From a virus (taxonomy: Duplodnaviria; Caudoviricetes): a stretch of DNA of 64,000 nucleotides. The first letter of the stretch is position 1; every line of letters starts with the position of its first letter. Below are positions 6,114 to 47,504 of the stretch, one piece after another. Made by a program: the position numbers and the translations under genes. Under the pieces are notes generated by a model that was not told the DNA's origin, made no database searches, and saw only the letters and a list, made by a program, of their open reading frames with translations. The stretch is taken from IMG/VR virus record IMGVR_UViG_3300028888_000049; one strand, given 5' to 3'.

Positions 6114-6127
6114 TAACGAAGGAGAGT

Positions 6128-6208
6128 ATGCTGATGTCATTTGGTTCACTGATGTATTTAACTACTTTTATCGTATATATTTATTGCTATTATCAATTTG
6201 TTAAATGA
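6128..6208 (+). CDS. 26-aa hydrophobic peptide (not in ORF track)
   Basis: GAAGGAG RBS; MLMSFGSLMYLTTFIVYIYCYYQFVK*; stop overlaps the next RBS. Confidence 0.55.
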   Translation: MLMSFGSLMYLTTFIVYIYCYYQFVK

Positions 6209-6219
6209 AAGGAACTAAC

Positions 6220-18487: not shown

Positions 18488-19054
18488 ATGTTAGAAGTTA
18501 ATATTTCAGATGCTATAACAGTTAAGCTTTTAGATAATGCTCATAATATTATTGATAATAAGTATGTATTAACAGCTAAACAATATAAGTTATTATCTGT
18601 TGAACAAATTGATGAATTAACATTATTATTTAAAGTTCGTGATTATAATACTAATGAAATTATTATCTTTTCAACCGAAGATGATGACATATTACATCGT
18701 CATATAGGTTTAGAGCATATTACTAACACTAATTTACAAATGAGAGCTATTAAAAAGGATTGTAAAGCCGTTGCTTCTAAGTTATATAATATATTATGTA
18801 AAAATGGTTTAATTAAAAGTAATAATATAACTGTTGATATTACACATTATGGTGGAAAAACTTATCTTATAGAAATTAAAAATTTAAACAATTATTCGCC
18901 TTATTCATGTTGTCCATTTGGAGTTAAAAGACTTAAATTTATAAATGAAATTACACAATTTAATTTAGAATTATCTTCCAATAATAAAGTTTTATGTATG
19001 GATGCTCTTCAATTTAATACATTAAAAACAGTTTTAAATATCTTAGGAGCCTAA
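18488..19054 (+). CDS. C-terminal-motif family protein with two motif copies
   Basis: GAGGAGG RBS at ATG 18488; EQIDELTLLFKV internally and QFNTLKTVLNILG at the end. Confidence 0.8.
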   Translation: MLEVNISDAITVKLLDNAHNIIDNKYVLTAKQYKLLSVEQIDELTLLFKVRDYNTNEIIIFSTEDDDILHRHIGLEHITNTNLQMRAIKKDCKAVASKLYNILCKNGLIKSNNITVDITHYGGKTYLIEIKNLNNYSPYSCCPFGVKRLKFINEITQFNLELSSNNKVLCMDALQFNTLKTVLNILGA

Positions 19055-19055
19055 T

Positions 19056-19301
19056 ATGACAGAAGTAAGATCTATTGTTACTATTCCCTACGATATTAAT
19101 CCTAAAAAAGATATATATCCAAAAGGAATAGTAATAAAGAAAGGACAATATATTGTTAATGAGTGGGAATACGGTAAAAAAGTAAGTTCTAGTGATGCAT
19201 TAAATCTAACTAATAAAGATACTAACGAATGGACTTGTTTTCTACTATATCATCCAGATAAATATACTAAAGATTGGATTGTACATACTGAATACTTTTA
19301 A
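19056..19301 (+). CDS. hypothetical protein
   Basis: AGGAG RBS. Confidence 0.8.
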   Translation: MTEVRSIVTIPYDINPKKDIYPKGIVIKKGQYIVNEWEYGKKVSSSDALNLTNKDTNEWTCFLLYHPDKYTKDWIVHTEYF

Positions 19302-19316
19302 ACGAAGGAGAATATA

Positions 19317-19619
19317 ATGATGGAATTAAGACAATTATCATATTATCTTTCAGGTTTTTTAGGTAAAAAATTAAAGAAATCAAGTATACTTACAAGATAT
19401 TCTTTAGATAAACAATATATTATTATTAGTACTAGTAATAAAATAGTATATAGCCATATTTTAAAAGCAATAGAACAGTTAATAGAAGTTGTTCCAACAA
19501 GTAGAAGAAGTCCATTAGAAGGTATAATACCAGGTAATCATTATGAATGTCTTATTTCAACAAAAGATGCAGAAAAACTAATGACTATATTAATAATTGG
19601 AGGATACTATATTGGCTAA
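19317..19619 (+). CDS. C-terminal-motif family protein
   Basis: KDAEKLMTILIIGG. Confidence 0.8.
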   Translation: MMELRQLSYYLSGFLGKKLKKSSILTRYSLDKQYIIISTSNKIVYSHILKAIEQLIEVVPTSRRSPLEGIIPGNHYECLISTKDAEKLMTILIIGGYYIG

Positions 19620-19938
19620 ATTAAGATTATGTAGAAATATTATAAGGAAATTAAACAAGAAATTCCATGATCAAGGTCTATCTTTTAGAATAGGAAAATA
19701 TAGAAAAAATAATAACATTAAATTACTTATAACTTTTTATTATTTAAGATTTAAAGATTTAGACTTTATTTCAATTAAAAACTATATTAAAGACTTTGAT
19801 AATACAGACGATTTTAAGTATAATATATATGAAGATGATATAGCTCGAACTAAAACAATAGTAATATTTAGTAATGAAGTAATTTTAGAAAAACTTTTAG
19901 CTTGTATATTATTGTTTCATAATTGTGATAAAGAATGA
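19597..19938 (+). CDS. C-terminal-motif family protein (start uncertain)
   Basis: VILEKLLACILLF. Confidence 0.7.
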   Translation: MEDTILAKLRLCRNIIRKLNKKFHDQGLSFRIGKYRKNNNIKLLITFYYLRFKDLDFISIKNYIKDFDNTDDFKYNIYEDDIARTKTIVIFSNEVILEKLLACILLFHNCDKE

Positions 19939-20317
19939 ATAGATCACCGCATATTGTTTTAATCAGTCCGTAATTTATTAATTAAAAAATTAAAAATTTA
20001 TTTATTTTTGGTTTTTTAATTTAATAAATGTATGTTAATATTTAAAAATAAATGTAATATAGTAAGTAAGTTATTAATTAGATCATATAATATATAGAAT
20101 TATTAAAAAATTAAAGAAATAGGAATTATTTTTCCAAATAGTAATCATTTTTTTCTAAAAGATTATAGATTGACATAAAGGTACTTTTTTTGACCGTACA
20201 ACAACTTTACAAAAATAATATATGATTTATTATATTTTTTAATAATGTTGATTCTGGATTATTTTAGGAAGTTTTATGAAAGCTAAATATATAATTTATT
20301 AATGAGAGTTAAATAAG

Positions 20318-20638
20318 ATGACATATTCACAAATAAAACAATTATGTTCAAACTTAAGTAATGTATTATGTGCATATTTAGATGTAGAATGGGGAACAAT
20401 TACATTAAATACTTGTGTTCAATCTGATAATAAGATTGAATATAGTTTTGCAATATGTGGATATGGTAAGTATAAAATTAGTAATCTGTTTAAAACTTTA
20501 GAAAAATTCTTAGTACAATTAAATATAAAACACCATGCACCACATATAATGTTAAAACAAAATTTATGTTTTGTTCCTATAGACGTAGATCAACTTGATA
20601 AACTTATCATGTATTTTTCAATAGAAGGTTTATTATGA
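20318..20638 (+). CDS. C-terminal-motif family protein
   Basis: FLVQLNIKH...DQLDKLIMYFSIEG. Confidence 0.8.
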   Translation: MTYSQIKQLCSNLSNVLCAYLDVEWGTITLNTCVQSDNKIEYSFAICGYGKYKISNLFKTLEKFLVQLNIKHHAPHIMLKQNLCFVPIDVDQLDKLIMYFSIEGLL

Positions 20639-20919
20639 GTAAAGATTATGATACTTATCTTGAAGAAATCACAAGATTGCAAGAACTTTTAAAAGAAACT
20701 TTAAAAGCTAGACATAGTATTTTCTTCCATAAAACAAGTATATTAGCTTTTGATGAAGATGTAGAACCTTTAAAGCAATTTCTAACAGACTTAGGAATAG
20801 AATATAAAGAAACACAGAATGTTAAGATATCAGATACAGAGAAAGCAATAACTCTTGCAATGAATGAAAAAGAATATGAAAAACTTGTAGCATACTTTAA
20901 AATAAATGGAACCTATTAA
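20635..20919 (+). CDS. C-terminal-motif family protein
   Basis: FLTDLGIEY...KEYEKLVAYFKING. Confidence 0.8.
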   Translation: MSKDYDTYLEEITRLQELLKETLKARHSIFFHKTSILAFDEDVEPLKQFLTDLGIEYKETQNVKISDTEKAITLAMNEKEYEKLVAYFKINGTY

Positions 20920-20926
20920 AAATTGC

Positions 20927-20954
20927 TTTACATTTGAATTTTGTTTGATATAAT
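20927..20954 (+). promoter_or_regulatory. class 1 promoter
   Basis: TTTACA-N16-TATAAT. Confidence 0.7.
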
Positions 20955-20997
20955 TATATTATATTTTTTGAATAACTTAATTCTAGTTAAAATAAAA

Positions 20998-21172
20998 GAG
21001 ATACCTCCTTTCGAGGTCTTCTGGCATATAAGACCTAAGCGGTTATGATGCGTTACTAGAGCGTTAAAACAAATCTCACTTCTAAAATATTTTTTATCCG
21101 CAGACCAATTATTTTAGAAGATACGTAGTCAATCATAGCAATATGCCAATACTTTTTTAACGAAGGAGAGTA
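20998..21172 (+). ncRNA. putative structured RNA / 5' leader with anti-SD sequence
   Basis: No ORF, raised GC, nested complementary segments TGGCATAT/ATATGCCA, GTTATGAT/ATCATAGC, CTTCTAAAATA/TATTTTAGAAG, AGGTCTT/AAGACCT; ATACCTCCTTTCG anti-SD. Confidence 0.6.
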
Positions 21173-21175
21173 TGT

Positions 21176-21523
21176 ATGAAATTTTATTTTGAGGGTAATT
21201 ATCATAACAAAGTATATTATAACAATGAGTTGTATTCAAATAAAGATAATGGCCTTAAAGAAAAATTAAATGATTTATTCAAATGCTCTTATTTCAAATT
21301 TTTACTTTCAAATACATGTAATTATTCTATAACAATAGATAATAAACAATATTGTTTTATGTCTTATTTTATAGCATCAACGGCATATACAGCAACTTTA
21401 ATAGAAGAAAAACTTAAAGAAATTGGAATTGAATATTTTAAAACAGTTAATAATGAAATTTATTTAGATGAAAAACAATCAGAAAAGCTTTATATGTTTT
21501 TAGTTATTAATAAAATTATATAG
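21176..21523 (+). CDS. C-terminal-motif family protein
   Basis: KLKEIGIEY...KQSEKLYMFLVINK. Confidence 0.8.
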   Translation: MKFYFEGNYHNKVYYNNELYSNKDNGLKEKLNDLFKCSYFKFLLSNTCNYSITIDNKQYCFMSYFIASTAYTATLIEEKLKEIGIEYFKTVNNEIYLDEKQSEKLYMFLVINKII

Positions 21524-21532
21524 GAAAATATT

Positions 21533-21811
21533 ATGCTTAAATATAATCTTATACCAAAAATTCATACTGCAACAAAATTAATAAGTAGATGTATGAAGAT
21601 AAACCAAAATCATTTATTATTGTTTTCAGCAAGAGAATTAGGTTATATTACTATTAGATCTCTTTCTAAAATAGATATTATTTATATGAAGGATAAGTTT
21701 GAAGAAAAATATAACTTTAAAACAATTATAAAAGATGATTATAGTTTAATTATAAAAATTGAAGATATAAATAATCTATTTGCACTTTATAAAATAGAAG
21801 GATGGATTTAA
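21533..21811 (+). CDS. C-terminal-motif family protein
   Basis: EDINNLFALYKIEG. Confidence 0.8.
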   Translation: MLKYNLIPKIHTATKLISRCMKINQNHLLLFSARELGYITIRSLSKIDIIYMKDKFEEKYNFKTIIKDDYSLIIKIEDINNLFALYKIEGWI

Positions 21812-22125
21812 TGTCAGAATCAGATAATATAACACAAAATGATATGGAATTTGTAGATTTTAACAGATTTGCATTTATGTCTTATTGTATACATTCATTA
21901 AAAATCAGACATTGTTATACTACTTGCAAAAAGACTATGTTTGGAATAATCATTAAATTTTGTGATTTGAATATCTGTAAAATTTTTTTAGAATGGTTAG
22001 AAACTCATTATGGAATAGCCAAAGAGTATAAAAGTAAACCGAATAATTATAATAATGAAAAATATTCAGTTGAATTATCAAAACAAGATATAGAAAGAAT
22101 GAAATTTATTAAAGCTATTTATTAA
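21811..22125 (+). CDS. C-terminal-motif family protein
   Basis: WLETHYGI...QDIERMKFIKAIY; TAATG coupling. Confidence 0.8.
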   Translation: MSESDNITQNDMEFVDFNRFAFMSYCIHSLKIRHCYTTCKKTMFGIIIKFCDLNICKIFLEWLETHYGIAKEYKSKPNNYNNEKYSVELSKQDIERMKFIKAIY

Positions 22126-23437
22126 CCTTCTTTCCAATATCTTTATATTTAGAAACTAATTCTCTCTGTCTATTAATTTGTTTTTGAGTCTGTGCAAATC
22201 CCATATACTTACATAAGTGATCATTTTTAAGTATAGTAATGGCCATACGTTTCCAAGATGGTAATTCGGCTGTATGCATAATATCATCTGTACAATCTGG
22301 AGTACCTAAGAATATAACTTGTTGTTTCGGAGATATCTTATTAATTCTACCTAGATTACGTATTTTATATCCATGTTCTTCAAGTTCTTTAATTGTTTCA
22401 TCATCTAAGCATCCACCTTTCTTCCACCAAAATCTAATAGATACTTTAAACTTTTCAATATAGTTCTCTCTAATTGCATCAGGTAAAGTAGCAAGTAAAA
22501 ACTTAACGTAAGATCTCCAAGTATGTCCTTTTGGTAATGTAATACTTTTTGCACCTAATGCTTTTGTATCGCCATAAATCGCACCAAAATTAGCACCTTG
22601 TACACGTGATACTACTTTAATCCATGTCTGTGGCTCAATAACTCTATAAAGATTAAGACTTCCTTTTGCATACTCTTGATATGGACTAGCTACACGCATT
22701 TGATAAATACTTAATCCAGCTTTATAAAAAAGGTCATATAACTTATTATAAGGATAACCTTCTCTTGCATTAGCTATCCAAATATCTTCAGCACTCCAAT
22801 CATATATAGGATAACCGTGACAATAGTTTTCACCCTTCTTTGTAGTCCATTTATTATCACCAAAAGTTAATTTCTTTTGATTATTAACAGCTCTAAAACG
22901 ATTTAATGATTCATCAGTACGAATACCTAATAAACAAATAGTCTTACCAGGATGTGTTTTTGCATACCAATCTTCAAATCCTGCATAAAAATCTTCCTGA
23001 GACATTTTATATTCATAAAAATCAAATGGATGATTATATTGATTAATAACCCAAGGATAATTTGGCATAGGTCTAACCCACTGATCTTTTTTCTGATCAT
23101 CCCAAGGATACCAATACATTTGATAATTACTAACAGCACATCTTGATCCCATAGGAACACAACACCAATATGGTTCTATATCGTCAAGATTTTCAACAAA
23201 CATCTTTTCTACATACTTAGAAGTCTCTTCATATTGAGATTCGAAGTCTTGATGAAATACACCTATTTTCTTAGTAATACCATGTTTACGTTTATAGTCA
23301 AGAATAAGATTTAAAACCATTCCACTATCTTTACCACCAGAAAATGAAACGTATATATTATCAAAAGTATCAAATATATACTTAATACGTTCCTGTGTAG
23401 CATCCCAAACATTCTTACCAATATATCTCTTAGCCAT
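22115..23437 (-). CDS. ibrA: PAPS-reductase-family / DUF3440 protein (IbrA/YbdN-like)
   Basis: SFSGGKDS PP-loop, GIRTDESLNR, YPIYDW, C-terminal PSWKRM...KNDHLCK; adjacent to an IbrB-like gene. Confidence 0.9.
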   Translation of the reverse strand: MAKRYIGKNVWDATQERIKYIFDTFDNIYVSFSGGKDSGMVLNLILDYKRKHGITKKIGVFHQDFESQYEETSKYVEKMFVENLDDIEPYWCCVPMGSRCAVSNYQMYWYPWDDQKKDQWVRPMPNYPWVINQYNHPFDFYEYKMSQEDFYAGFEDWYAKTHPGKTICLLGIRTDESLNRFRAVNNQKKLTFGDNKWTTKKGENYCHGYPIYDWSAEDIWIANAREGYPYNKLYDLFYKAGLSIYQMRVASPYQEYAKGSLNLYRVIEPQTWIKVVSRVQGANFGAIYGDTKALGAKSITLPKGHTWRSYVKFLLATLPDAIRENYIEKFKVSIRFWWKKGGCLDDETIKELEEHGYKIRNLGRINKISPKQQVIFLGTPDCTDDIMHTAELPSWKRMAITILKNDHLCKYMGFAQTQKQINRQRELVSKYKDIGKKVNK

Positions 23438-23456
23438 AAATCTTATTCCTAAATCA

Positions 23457-23627
23457 TTATTGCAAAAAAGTACTAAAACTTATTCCCAAAGTAAAACCAC
23501 ATAATATAAAAATTATTACATATAAATTAAGATAATCACGTATATCTGCATTAATATGTTTTAAATATAAACTTATCATTAACGCAATCAAAGCTGACAT
23601 AAATCCAATCGTATTTAATAAAGTCAT
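23457..23627 (-). CDS. small two-TM membrane protein
   Basis: Two hydrophobic stretches; fills the gap between ibrB and ibrA. Confidence 0.55.
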   Translation of the reverse strand: MTLLNTIGFMSALIALMISLYLKHINADIRDYLNLYVIIFILCGFTLGISFSTFLQ

Positions 23628-23629
23628 TT

Positions 23630-24157
23630 TTAATCTACTTCCCAAGCTTCACTAAAATCTTTTTCTTTAAATAATGATGCTAAACCTGTAATTTGCTTTA
23701 ATCGCAATACTTCATCAGGACTCATACCAATATTTTTACAAATCCATGCATCACTCTTACCCATTTCAACTAACTCAGCAATAATATTACTCATTAAATC
23801 AACATTATGACTACCGCGTGCTCTATTATGACGAATAGTTGAAGCCATACGTTCTCCCAATTCTTTATCAATAGTAACTACCGGTAATAATCCATGCTCT
23901 CTCTCATAAATACGCTTACTAGTCTTCATTGTAGTATAACGGTGAAAACCATCTACAATAACATAACGGTCATTTTCTTTATCATAATAACATACAACTG
24001 GTTGTGTATATCCATCTTCCCATATACTTGTCTCTAATAACGCCATCTCAGGAGGAGCAACTTTATTAGGATTATATTCATTAGCATAAACTTTATCTAA
24101 AGGGACTGCTCTTACATTATATACAGGACTAAGAAATTTTTCATTTTCTTCAGACAT
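23630..24157 (-). CDS. ibrB: ParB/Srx-like protein (IbrB/YbdM-like)
   Basis: ANEYNPNKVAPPEM, IVDGFHR, STIRHNRARG; AAGGAG RBS before ATG 24157. Confidence 0.92.
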   Translation of the reverse strand: MSEENEKFLSPVYNVRAVPLDKVYANEYNPNKVAPPEMALLETSIWEDGYTQPVVCYYDKENDRYVIVDGFHRYTTMKTSKRIYEREHGLLPVVTIDKELGERMASTIRHNRARGSHNVDLMSNIIAELVEMGKSDAWICKNIGMSPDEVLRLKQITGLASLFKEKDFSEAWEVD

Positions 24158-24294
24158 AACAACTCCTTTTATCAATTAAACTTTAAATATATTATATATA
24201 AAGAACTGCTAAAGTAAAACAAAAAACATAAAGATTTTAAAGAATTTTTGACTTTACAAAATACATCATACAAAATATTATATATAAAAAGGAG

Positions 24295-27918: not shown

Positions 27919-28188
27919 TTTCTAACTCCTTTTTATACAAACTAATATACTATATAGAATTATATTTGTACATAACTTTTCAAAATTATTTTTCCAAAGC
28001 TAACTTGCCCTTATATTGATTGAATAGATACCTCTCATAACTTTTCAAATTAGGTGACTCACTTACTTATTATAATGAGTTTCAGGTTTTAGTGGAGTGA
28101 ATGAAGATGTCACTTCACTCTGACCTTTGTATTTAACTGACTAAAAGATTTGATTATTAACAAATTAAAGGATACTTTGCAATAATAT

Positions 28189-28220
28189 AAAAAAGAACTC
28201 CTAGATATTTCTAGGAGTCC
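28189..28220 (-). terminator. intrinsic terminator of capsid gene
   Basis: ACTCCTAGA...TCTAGGAGT stem with a U tract on the minus strand. Confidence 0.8.
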
Positions 28221-29815: not shown

Positions 29816-29829
29816 AATTTAATTTCCTT

Positions 29830-29950
29830 ATAATAGATGAGATAGATTGTTTTAAGTTTTTTCCTATAAAATGTTGAGTTAATATCTATCTCTATAATTT
29901 GTTTTGTAACATCTGTTGAAAGGATAGCAGATGTAAATGTATAAAGAATG
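29830..29950 (-). promoter_or_regulatory. structured 5' leader and class 2-like promoter of capsid gene
   Basis: Hairpins GAGATAGA/TCTATCTC and ACATCTGTT/AGCAGATGT; ATTCTTTAT variant of the GTTCTA motif at ~29941-29949. Confidence 0.5.
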
Positions 29951-29982
29951 TTCGTTATTGTATAATTTCTTAGGTATTTTAT

Positions 29983-30168
29983 TTATTTCGATACATATAA
30001 AGATAGGTAGACTGACGTGTATTTTACCGTTCTGTACTTAAGATTTTGTATGTATTTTTGTGGAAATTTAATAAAATATAAAGAGTAGTGACAATAATAT
30101 ACTCTATAATCCAGAATAGTAGGAGGTGGAATCTCTTTGAAGTAAGATAATATGTTAGGAGATTCCAT
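29983..30168 (-). CDS. doubtful 61-aa ORF (leaderless gene or non-coding transcript)
   Basis: Class 2 motif about 10 nt upstream of the ATG; no RBS. Confidence 0.3.
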   Translation of the reverse strand: MESPNILSYFKEIPPPTILDYRVYYCHYSLYFIKFPQKYIQNLKYRTVKYTSVYLSLYVSK

Positions 30169-30355
30169 AATTATTGTATAGAACTGTATGCTGTATAAAG
30201 AGTATAGTATTTGTGAATTAATTATTTGAATTATTTTTCCGATTGTCTTGTTTTATCTTTATTTTTCAATTAGTTAAGATATGTTAAATTTTGCTTTACT
30301 TTTAATAAATTTTATGTTAATAATAGTACATTAAGTCAATTTTAAGGAGATTAAG

Positions 30356-35104: not shown

Positions 35105-35777
35105 TATGGAAATGGTAAGTATTACACTTGTAGATAATAAAGAGCGTGAGTTATGTACTTATAAAACAGCTCGTTTTCTTGCATTAGAGTTAGTAGAATA
35201 TTTAAGTAATAGTTATTTTAAAACACATATGGCTAAAACTCAGCCTTGTAAAGAAGATTTAGTTAATTTTTTGTATCCATGCTTAACTAGTAATAGTGAC
35301 GAAATAATTATTTATCTTAATGCACTTGATAAATTAGATAATGACTTTGTTAGATTAAATCCAAAAAGACATGCTAAAGTATTAATTAGAGCTTTGTTAG
35401 CTGGTGTTAGAAGCGCTCATAAAAATCACAAATTACTAAATAATAATGATTTATATAATAACGGTATTCCAATATTTGCGATAGATGATAAACTTAATCA
35501 TACATGGATAGCAAGATTTTCTAATTTTAAAATTAAAGTATTTATTGCATATTTAATGAGAGTTTATAAATTAGATAAAAATATAGCATATGATCTTTAT
35601 AAAAATGCTATTAAACATAAAGAATTAGGTATAAATTTTGATAAAGTACTTGGTGAAGAAACGAAAAATTTTTTAATTAAACTTTATAGTCTTTCAAAAT
35701 ATGATGATTACAAGTTACATTATCTGTTAATAGAAGATTTTGAAAATGAATATCGTAAAAAATATTCACAATTATAA
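35091..35777 (+). CDS. hypothetical protein
   Basis: Long ORF. Confidence 0.8.
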   Translation: MEIINMEMVSITLVDNKERELCTYKTARFLALELVEYLSNSYFKTHMAKTQPCKEDLVNFLYPCLTSNSDEIIIYLNALDKLDNDFVRLNPKRHAKVLIRALLAGVRSAHKNHKLLNNNDLYNNGIPIFAIDDKLNHTWIARFSNFKIKVFIAYLMRVYKLDKNIAYDLYKNAIKHKELGINFDKVLGEETKNFLIKLYSLSKYDDYKLHYLLIEDFENEYRKKYSQL

Positions 35778-40967: not shown

Positions 40968-40969
40968 AA

Positions 40970-41040
40970 TATTCGTTATAAAAAGTGCTGAAAAGTGGCA
41001 ATTATTCGCTATAAAAAGTGTAAAAGTTGCCACTTCTTCA
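40970..41040 (+). repeat. 18-bp direct repeat interleaved with an inverted repeat
   Basis: TATTCG(T/C)TATAAAAAGTG at 40970 and 41003; AAGTGGCAA...TTGCCACTT. Confidence 0.7.
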
Positions 41041-41058
41041 CTAGAAAAAGGTGAATGA

Positions 41059-41250
41059 ATGTATATAATTGAAGTAGTTAAATATGCTAAAACAAATGAT
41101 GGAGTAATAGAATTACGTAAACCTGTTGGTATATTTAAAAATAAATTTAATGCTGAAGATCACATTGCACTTTATAGTGAAAAATATCTTGATAATGATT
41201 ATAATAGTGAATGTAATCTTGAAATAAGAGAATTGGATTCAGATTTATAA
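41059..41250 (+). CDS. small hypothetical protein
   Basis: AAGGTG RBS. Confidence 0.75.
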   Translation: MYIIEVVKYAKTNDGVIELRKPVGIFKNKFNAEDHIALYSEKYLDNDYNSECNLEIRELDSDL

Positions 41251-47217: not shown

Positions 47218-47238
47218 GTTTTTTATTTTGTTTGGAAT

Positions 47239-47272
47239 AAAGACCTATTTCTTAAAGATTTAGGTCTTTTTT
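47239..47272 (+). terminator. intrinsic terminator
   Basis: AAAGACCTA...TAGGTCTTT plus T tract. Confidence 0.8.
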
Positions 47273-47336
47273 GTTGTACAAGTTCTTAAAAACATGATAT
47301 AATATATTATATTTCGAAAAATATAGGAGAAGTGTC

Positions 47337-47504
47337 ATGTTTACAAATAAATACATAGTTCATCCTCAAAACGATTTAAAATCACAATTTGCTGAAGAAT
47401 TTGATTCGAAACAAGAAGCAGAAAAGCGTTGTGATGAATTGAATACTAAACTCACAAAAATTGTTTGGGTTATTTCCACGATCTTAGTAAATACAGGGTG
47501 GTAA
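47337..47504 (+). CDS. 55-aa protein (not in ORF track)
   Basis: AGGAG RBS; MFTNKYIVHP...FDSKQEAE...GW*. Confidence 0.7.
   Translation: MFTNKYIVHPQNDLKSQFAEEFDSKQEAEKRCDELNTKLTKIVWVISTILVNTGW

Follow-up and report, generated by a model that had tools for sequence, protein, structure and literature searches.

The leader of hok from plasmid R1 folds during transcription and sequesters the Shine-Dalgarno (SD) sequence of its own mRNA, and the leaders of other type I toxin mRNAs are of the same kind. In phage lambda, structure in the N leader occludes the ribosome binding site (RBS) of N until the leader is processed, and the early RNase III sites of T7 are comparable rods. The c4 RNA is processed to a discrete RNA of approximately 77 nucleotides (nt) and belongs to the immunity system of temperate phages, and pistol ribozymes are common in phages of Firmicutes. 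Here we analysed positions 20998–21172 (plus strand) of a 64,000-nt stretch of phage DNA (Caudoviricetes; IMG/VR record IMGVR_UViG_3300028888_000049), and this whole stretch is referred to below as the window. An initial annotation, made from the sequence alone, had described the element at these positions as a structured RNA with an anti-Shine-Dalgarno (anti-SD) sequence and competing folds, and had proposed either a switch-like leader or a trans-acting small RNA (sRNA). Our analysis indicates that the element is a real structured leader that is probably functional but looks ordinary, of a known kind and not a new RNA class. Tentatively, we regard it as a cis-acting 5′ leader of an early mRNA that would keep the RBS of a gene for a protein of 115 amino acids (aa) paired, as a brake or a timer. 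We favour a leader because a strong promoter precedes the element, no terminator follows it on the plus strand, the RBS lies on the sense strand and the SD is predicted to be paired.

Results

The element lies in a non-coding gap of 256 nt (20920–21175) that is flanked by a 94-aa gene and the 115-aa gene, both on the plus strand. No credible open reading frame (ORF) was found in the gap under table 11, table 4 or with TAG read as glutamine, and a coding reading of the gap is ruled out under these codes. An ARAGORN search found no tRNA or tmRNA. The GC content at 21000–21150 is 0.32–0.37, compared with 0.15–0.30 for whole gaps and a mean of 26.4% (0.264) for the window. A sigma70-like early promoter lies ahead of the element at 20927–20954 (plus strand), with the −35 box TTTACA, a spacer of 16 nt and the extended −10 box TGaTATAAT. 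Its score is 11/12, with the extended TG in addition. No sigma70-like site in the window is better, no other site in the 64 kb matches its pattern perfectly, and the promoter is unaltered in a strain that is 6% diverged. The promoter, the lack of coding capacity and the raised GC content had all been noted in the initial annotation, and our results agree with it on each. From the position of the promoter, transcription is predicted to start near 20961, which would give a leader of approximately 215 nt.

No terminator-like site was found on the plus strand in 19000–23000. A run of six U residues at 21153 sits 4 nt past the long-range helix H1 described below, without a compact GC-rich stem before it. 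Of the two boundaries of a terminator-bounded sRNA gene, the locus has the promoter and lacks the intrinsic terminator. The element is on the sense strand and reaches from the predicted start to the start codon without a terminator between them, which is the arrangement of a leader. Within this leader, AATTCTAGTTAAA at 20980–20992 fits a AAGTTCTAAATAA-type motif at nine of 13 positions, and a second transcription start is possible there, just upstream of the anti-SD. Motifs of the AAGTTCTAAATAA type also occur in the related giant phage G002 at about 175480 and 175635.

The anti-SD segment ATACCTCCTTTCG (21001–21013, plus strand) can pair with the downstream RBS at 21161–21173, as had been claimed, in a duplex of 12 bp with two bulges and −13.1 to −14.2 kcal/mol. 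The complementarity reaches past the SD core, with AUAC/GUAU on one side and CG/CG on the other. Ten bases of ATACCTCCTTTCG are identical to the 3′ tail of bacterial 16S rRNA. The 9-mer ACCTCCTTT at 21003 is the sole plus-strand copy in the window, and the four other copies are complements of plus-strand RBSs; 0.29 copies on both strands would be expected by chance. CCTCC occurs four times on the plus strand in 64 kb, and outside genes only at this element. The RBS context is recurrent, in line with the initial annotation: the 12-mer ACGAAGGAGAGT has three exact copies (the others at 2560 and 6116), and five copies are found when one mismatch is allowed (14789 and 19302 in addition). As a duplex partner of the anti-SD, the element's own RBS ranks 13th of 104, and 12 genes reach −14.3 to −17.8 kcal/mol compared with −14.2 kcal/mol. 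Because its own RBS ranks only 13th, the anti-SD is without target specificity.

Read on the minus strand, the same bases resemble an RBS (AAAGGAGGT, 21011–21003). No ATG, GTG or TTG lies in range of it, and a gene start on this strand was rejected, as the only open frame would be frameshifted by a strain insertion after 20988. The 15-mer ACCTCCTTTCGAGGT was found in 53 IMG/VR contigs, where nearly all copies are complements of RBS hairpins on the opposite strand and none carries the rod.

Pair probabilities were computed for the nested ensemble of 21001–21152. In this ensemble the 5′ end folds into a hairpin, P0 (ACCTC/GAGGT with the loop CTTTC; 21003–21007/21013–21017, plus strand), with pair probabilities of 0.86–1.0 and half of the anti-SD in its stem; in isolation P0 has −4.9 to −5.4 kcal/mol. 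The long-range closing helix H1 (TGGCATAT/ATATGCCA; 21022–21029/21141–21148, plus strand) has a probability of approximately 1 in both the window and the strain variant, and it encloses a domain of 127 nt. An apical hairpin, H4 (21079–21089/21110–21120, plus strand), has an 11-bp AU-rich stem, a 20-nt loop (21090–21109) and likewise a probability of approximately 1. H1 and the apical hairpin of the proposed rod were recovered in this way. Helix H2 (GTTATGAT/ATCATAGC; 21042–21049/21132–21139, plus strand) is marginal, with a probability of approximately 0.5 in the window that falls to 0.05 in the variant, and the ACTA/TAGT helix of the initial annotation was not supported (pair probability 0.04).

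An alternative hairpin, ALT (AGGTCTT/AAGACCT with a 9-nt loop; 21014–21020/21030–21036, plus strand; −6.1 to −7.2 kcal/mol), excludes P0. In isolation ALT is more stable than P0, and it is not in the nested equilibrium ensemble. In simulated nascent transcripts, ALT is the minimum free energy (MFE) structure of those ending at 21040 and at 21080–21140, until the 3′ arm of H1 emerges; the full-length RNA favours P0 plus H1. The competing 5′ folds are plausibly real in a kinetic sense because ALT beats P0 in simulated nascent transcripts. The loop of ALT is the 5′ arm of H1, and ALT plus H1 would make an H-type pseudoknot.

At the 3′ end, a local hairpin at 21149–21173 (plus strand; −5.3 kcal/mol) pairs the U-run at 21153–21158 with the SD (AAGGAGAG, 21163–21170). 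The SD is paired in nearly the whole predicted ensemble of the full leader, approximately 65% with the U-run (21149–21158) and 25–35% with the anti-SD at 21001–21013. The predicted cost of opening the SD is 4.0 kcal/mol in its local context and rises to 6.5 kcal/mol when the leader is complete. A closed rod in which the anti-SD is forced to pair with the SD has −44.9 kcal/mol, 1.7 kcal/mol from the MFE of −46.6 kcal/mol, and approximately 24 near-continuous base pairs across the SD. In the comparison with shuffled controls that had been suggested for the fold, the z-score was −2.0 to −2.7 on the plus strand, depending on the bounds, and −0.3 to −1.1 on the minus strand. A signal on the plus strand only would be as expected for an RNA with G·U pairs, and not for a DNA palindrome.

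Fold energies were also compared in a fixed tiling of 150 nt over all 20 gaps of at least 120 nt in the window. Tiles that fold better than the element, with z-scores of −3.4 to −4.2, lie at 28069–28218 (minus strand), 40968–41117 (plus), 30066–30215 (plus), 47218–47367 (plus) and 29816–29965 (minus). Terminators beside the capsid and protease genes probably account for some of the better-folding tiles.

Contigs from four runs were compared with the window over 20600–21600. One of them was informative, a contig of 8,764 nt (run X10) that covers 20600–21559 and has 60 differences and five insertions, a divergence of approximately 6%. The differences listed were taken as complete up to 21265 on the basis of the amino-acid differences between P0009 and P0001, since each change that these require before 21265 is in the list and those absent from it all lie farther on; the following counts refer to this list. 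There were no changes in the 91 nt of 20998–21088, compared with 25 of 375 positions in the flanking coding sequence (Fisher p = 0.007). Outside the apical loop, two of 132 positions of the element were altered (p = 0.023). In the apical loop of H4, five of 20 positions were substituted (p = 0.012), and the loop has two insertions as well. All five single-base insertions fall within 20988–21125 and none in the flanking genes. Nine of 11 events cluster within 37 nt (p approximately 0.001), a cluster that could be one complex mutational event.

Both partners of the long-range pairing, the anti-SD and the SD, are invariant in this strain, the only diverged one in the comparison. The change of G21138 to A turns a U·G pair of H2 into U-A, and the change of G21174 to A abolishes an out-of-frame ATG at 21172. 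The variant sequence, rebuilt for folding by applying the listed edits to the window, retains P0, H1 and 9 bp of H4, with a weak H2. In this one sequence pair, the pattern of variation is what a hairpin-capped functional element would show.

The window contains genes for a major head protein, a Lon-like protease, an NAD-dependent ligase, NrdD and homing endonucleases. Its capsid protein is 58–82% identical to capsids on IMG/VR contigs of 157–237 kb, and an exact copy of the 115-aa neighbour protein is encoded on a contig of 263,463 bp. The public runs that carry the stretch are mostly from ruminant gut (sheep, goat, bovine); others come from anaerobic digesters, sediment and manure, and no RNA run is among those listed. 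The large related contigs and the predominance of ruminant gut runs indicate that the source is a giant rumen phage.

The element itself was not found in blastn searches of 50,697 phage records, and an exact-pattern scan of IMG/VR with one 19-mer found no copy. A 19-mer from its invariant part was absent from JGI metagenome contigs and from GTDB genomes; the empty GTDB scan also argues against a host-derived miniature inverted-repeat transposable element. Neither blastn nor a covariance model built on the rod (R1) found anything in five related phage records (157–237 kb), and R1 found no second copy in the window. The element is not conserved among related giant phages with capsids 58–82% identical. 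The 115-aa gene was also not found in viral, metagenome or GTDB contigs or, with a protein profile, in the five related giant-phage records of 157–237 kb, and 12 variants of it, at 83–92% aa identity, are present in the protein collection on Logan/ENA contigs. On these searches the element appears to be confined to one strain cluster and lineage-specific.

Searches of Rfam 15 found nothing relevant, either at the gathering score for the whole window or at E-values up to 10 for segments of 451 nt and 191 nt; the families covered include pistol, C4 and the riboswitches. The element had not been assigned to a known RNA class, and against Rfam 15 this remains so. The pistol ribozyme (RF02679) was considered and rejected, as there was no match to its covariance model, in which ten highly conserved nucleotides are represented, and the partner of the ALT loop (21141–21148) lies 110 nt downstream across a 104-nt domain.

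The leader heads an operon of three plus-strand genes with unassigned functions, which encode proteins of 115 aa (21176–21523), 92 aa (21533–21811) and 107 aa (21802–22125). A Pfam search of the 115-aa protein found no family. Its AlphaFold2 model has a pLDDT of 64 and no PDB match with E < 0.4. The structural neighbours of its ESM Atlas model are LAGLIDADG-like (TM-score 0.54–0.56), a weak lead only, which the AlphaFold2 model is too weak to confirm. This lead does not explain why the 115-aa gene would need a brake. On the minus strand, genes for an IbrA-like PAPS reductase (440 aa) and a ParB-N/IbrB-like protein (181 aa) at 22115–24175 converge on the operon, and the stop codon of the IbrA gene overlaps the end of the 107-aa gene. 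A synteny search with IbrA led to a single, unrelated locus at 56% identity. The window also contains dozens of tandem ORFs of approximately 100 aa, of which blastp connects only a few pairs.

Motifs related to the anti-SD or to its RBS were seen at several other places. At 2510–2571, just 3′ of a 461-aa HNH gene, an 8-bp hairpin (GGGATAAG/CTTATCCC) has a 14-nt loop with ACTCCTTTCT, which closely resembles the 16S tail. An RBS identical to that of the element, ACGAAGGAGAGT, follows 30 nt downstream, and apart from these two sites the window has no intergenic sense-strand CTCCTTTC. In phage G002 (record of L005), gene-end hairpins at 35120 (minus strand) and 175539 (plus strand) have loops with ATACCTCCTTTC or CCCTCCTTTCCC. 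The hairpin at 35120 has a 12-mer in common with the element; a strong terminator comes after one of the two, and the other forms a terminator itself. In a total of 530 kb, 13 CTCCTTTC sites are not RBS complements, and four of these are in intergenic hairpins. In two whole related genomes, the sense-strand intergenic anti-SD motifs were terminator-type hairpins, and no comparable leader was found.

Two further observations concern RBS contexts. An unlisted ORF of approximately 26 codons at 6116–6214 (ATG at 6128 or 6134, stop at 6212–6214) stands behind an RBS identical to that of the element, and its peptide product is strongly hydrophobic. The 15-mer ACCTCGAAAGGAGGT is found in many unrelated IMG/VR phage contigs (L028, L032, L034, L039, L049, L050, L065, L073 and others), directly 3′ of a TATAAT-like box and 6–9 nt before the start codon. 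It forms a recurrent hairpin at the 5′ end of a transcript, in which the SD of the leading gene is paired.

Discussion

We propose that the element acts as a leader that spans from the start near 20961 to the ATG at 21176 and works in cis on the 115-aa ORF. The nascent 5′ end would fold into either P0 or ALT, which are mutually exclusive; P0 would bury half of the anti-SD, and ALT would leave it single-stranded. The 127-nt domain, closed by H1 and capped by H4, would then bring the 5′ anti-SD beside the RBS, where the SD might pair either with the adjacent U-run (weakly, about −5 kcal/mol) or with the anti-SD (strongly, about −13 kcal/mol). The anti-SD:SD form would be one continuous rod from 21001 to 21173. 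Whether P0 or ALT forms would set the partner of the SD, with the anti-SD as the strong one and the U-run as the weak one. Overall, translation of the 115-aa ORF, which heads an early operon of three genes, would be held back or delayed, and release might come about through ribosome standby, through cleavage of the rod by an RNase (for example RNase III) or through another factor. In this scheme we infer the transcription start, the fold in the cell and the regulatory outcome.

Several results weigh against this proposal. The U-run together with the RBS context recurs at other genes, and the local hairpin may be the usual context of an RBS in this phage; the energy of opening the SD in its local context is unremarkable (rank 12 of 77 genes). 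The fold energy is only modestly better than that of the shuffles, and in the tiling the tile of the element has a z-score of −1.8 and ranks 17th of 118, with several other gaps at −3 to −4. The initial annotation had called the leader switch-like. The leader part of this claim fits, with a promoter, an RBS, no terminator and a paired SD, and the switch part remains conjectural: no ON state is predicted, and no ligand or factor is evident.

The conservation is also less clear than the partitioned counts suggest. The whole pre-specified segment of 175 nt is not significantly conserved (seven substitutions compared with 11.7 expected, p = 0.11), and a scan statistic gives a probability of approximately 0.08 for 92 or more consecutive invariant nt at any place in the 666 nt compared. 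The evidence comes from one contig, the partition into regions was chosen after seeing the data, and we infer that the list of differences is complete to 21265. Unpaired stretches are conserved too, which does not single out structure as the constraint. In the viral, metagenome, GTDB and related-phage searches, no homologue was found beyond near-identical rumen strains.

Some of these observations would also fit an element with no dedicated function. The gap could be a spacer, perhaps the remnant of a lost gene start, with complementarity that arose by chance, as is usual in DNA of 26% GC, and a strain identity that reflects a recent recombination tract or the sampling of a single pair. By our own estimate, 8-bp inverted repeats within 130 nt are expected by chance and 11-bp AT-rich hairpins several times per 64 kb; the element is no outlier in fold z-score, the scan probability is approximately 0.08, and ACCTCCTTTCGAGGT elsewhere is nearly always the complement of an RBS hairpin, so that the motif could be a relic of a gene start on the opposite strand. 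However, an exact sense-strand anti-SD of 9–10 nt is expected only approximately 0.02 times per strand per 64 kb (our own estimate, from base composition), the variant has its changes concentrated in the apical loop (p approximately 0.001), and the peak GC content is 0.37 compared with 0.15–0.30 for whole gaps. We consider a lack of function unlikely. Still less likely, in our view, is that the invariant 90 bp act as DNA, as an operator or protein-binding region, for example for shut-off of early transcription, and that the folds are incidental. Paired and unpaired positions are conserved alike, the region is directly 3′ of a strong promoter, and GCGTTA occurs twice, 11 bp apart, at 21050 and 21061. 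The fold z-score is nevertheless strand-specific, and no second copy of any part of the element exists in the window. In the variant the spacer between the arms of H4 shifts by 2–3 nt while the arms are kept, which a hairpin loop tolerates and a dimeric operator would not.

The trans-acting sRNA of the initial annotation gained no positive support, as there is no terminator, no discrete RNA is evident and there is no target specificity. In a wider form, the leader or a stable processed piece of it could pair with other phage or host RBSs through the C-rich anti-SD, or could act as a decoy for a factor that recognizes the 16S tail, and would then work like the c4 RNA of P1 or the C-rich loops of staphylococcal RNAIII. 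The anti-SD does pair with many RBSs equally well or better (12 genes at −14.3 to −17.8 kcal/mol compared with −14.2 kcal/mol), its 10-nt identity to the 16S tail would suit such a role, the RNA would be early and strongly promoted, and further hairpin loops with CUCCUUUC occur in this phage and in a relative. There is also a precedent in c4, which is encoded in the operon that it regulates (PMC8198154). Yet the plus strand has no intrinsic terminator or other defined 3′ end, the genes of the phage share the same SD and offer no specific target, half of the anti-SD is buried in P0 at equilibrium, and neither C4 nor any other sRNA family in Rfam matched. We doubt an action in trans for these reasons. 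A related idea seems to us very unlikely: an early abundant RNA that displays GAUACCUCCUUUC as a mimic of the 16S tail would serve as an SD sponge that reshapes early translation, or as a decoy for some host or phage factor that binds this tail or cuts it, and the CUCCUUUC loops elsewhere in these giant rumen phages would be part of the same system.

The element could also be an uncatalogued catalytic or ligand-sensing RNA, either a self-cleaving ribozyme or a riboswitch with a 127-nt aptamer and an anti-SD/SD platform. A hairpin loop that pairs with a distant segment has the topology of a pseudoknot, AAGACCUAAGCG resembles a stretch of a pistol ribozyme, and the size of the element and its 3′ SD-sequestering platform would suit a translational riboswitch. 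However, no match to Pistol, to other ribozymes or to riboswitches was found at E-values up to 10 (191 and 451 nt), and the pistol architecture (PMC4604425) is not present. True classes of such RNAs are widespread, whereas the element is limited to one strain cluster. We regard this possibility as highly improbable.

If the proposed cis-acting leader is correct, it would be another case in which an upstream anti-SD occludes an RBS, this time in a giant rumen phage that is uncultured, and it would mean that these phages meter at least one early operon post-transcriptionally. The interest of such a finding would be local. Its value would rise only if the anti-SD acts in trans or presents some factor with a mimic of the 16S tail, or if premature synthesis of the 115-aa protein is harmful. 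The analysis also gives useful negative results, in that the element belongs neither to the pistol ribozymes nor to a known class of riboswitch or sRNA.

Among known systems, the pistol ribozyme and the element have in common a hairpin whose loop is able to pair farther downstream. Pistol is compact, with helices P1–P3 and a pseudoknot that links the loop of P1 to the P2/P3 junction (PMC4604425), whereas the element is without the P1-P2-P3 arrangement and no GU cleavage junction was identified in it. The local hairpin at 21149–21173 (−5.3 kcal/mol), in which a U-run pairs with the AGGA of the SD, resembles RNA thermometers of the fourU type. Unlike a dedicated thermometer, the same U-run and RBS context is present at other genes, and the temperature of the rumen is constant.

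The long structured leader or rod in an early phage transcript is a feature shared with the lambda N leader and the T7 early RNase III sites. The helices of the element are short, AU-rich and interrupted, unlike those of the two systems, and it has no nut-like box; an RNase III site is not predictable from sequence. Like c4 of P1 and P7 (RF01695), it would be a phage RNA that heads its own operon and is complementary to the downstream RBS region (PMC8198154), which is an analogy and not homology. It differs from c4 in having no match to the C4 covariance model and no known processing signal or discrete RNA, and this phage looks lytic.

The type I toxin mRNAs, such as aapA3 of H. pylori (PMC6733600), also have an upstream anti-SD that pairs with the SD of the same mRNA. 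In those mRNAs, co-transcriptional alternative 5′ hairpins set the role of the anti-SD and the full-length fold closes the RBS, and the predicted folds of the element would follow the same scheme. There is no sequence or family relation between them, no antisense RNA partner is evident here, and the downstream product is a 115-aa protein instead of a small membrane toxin.

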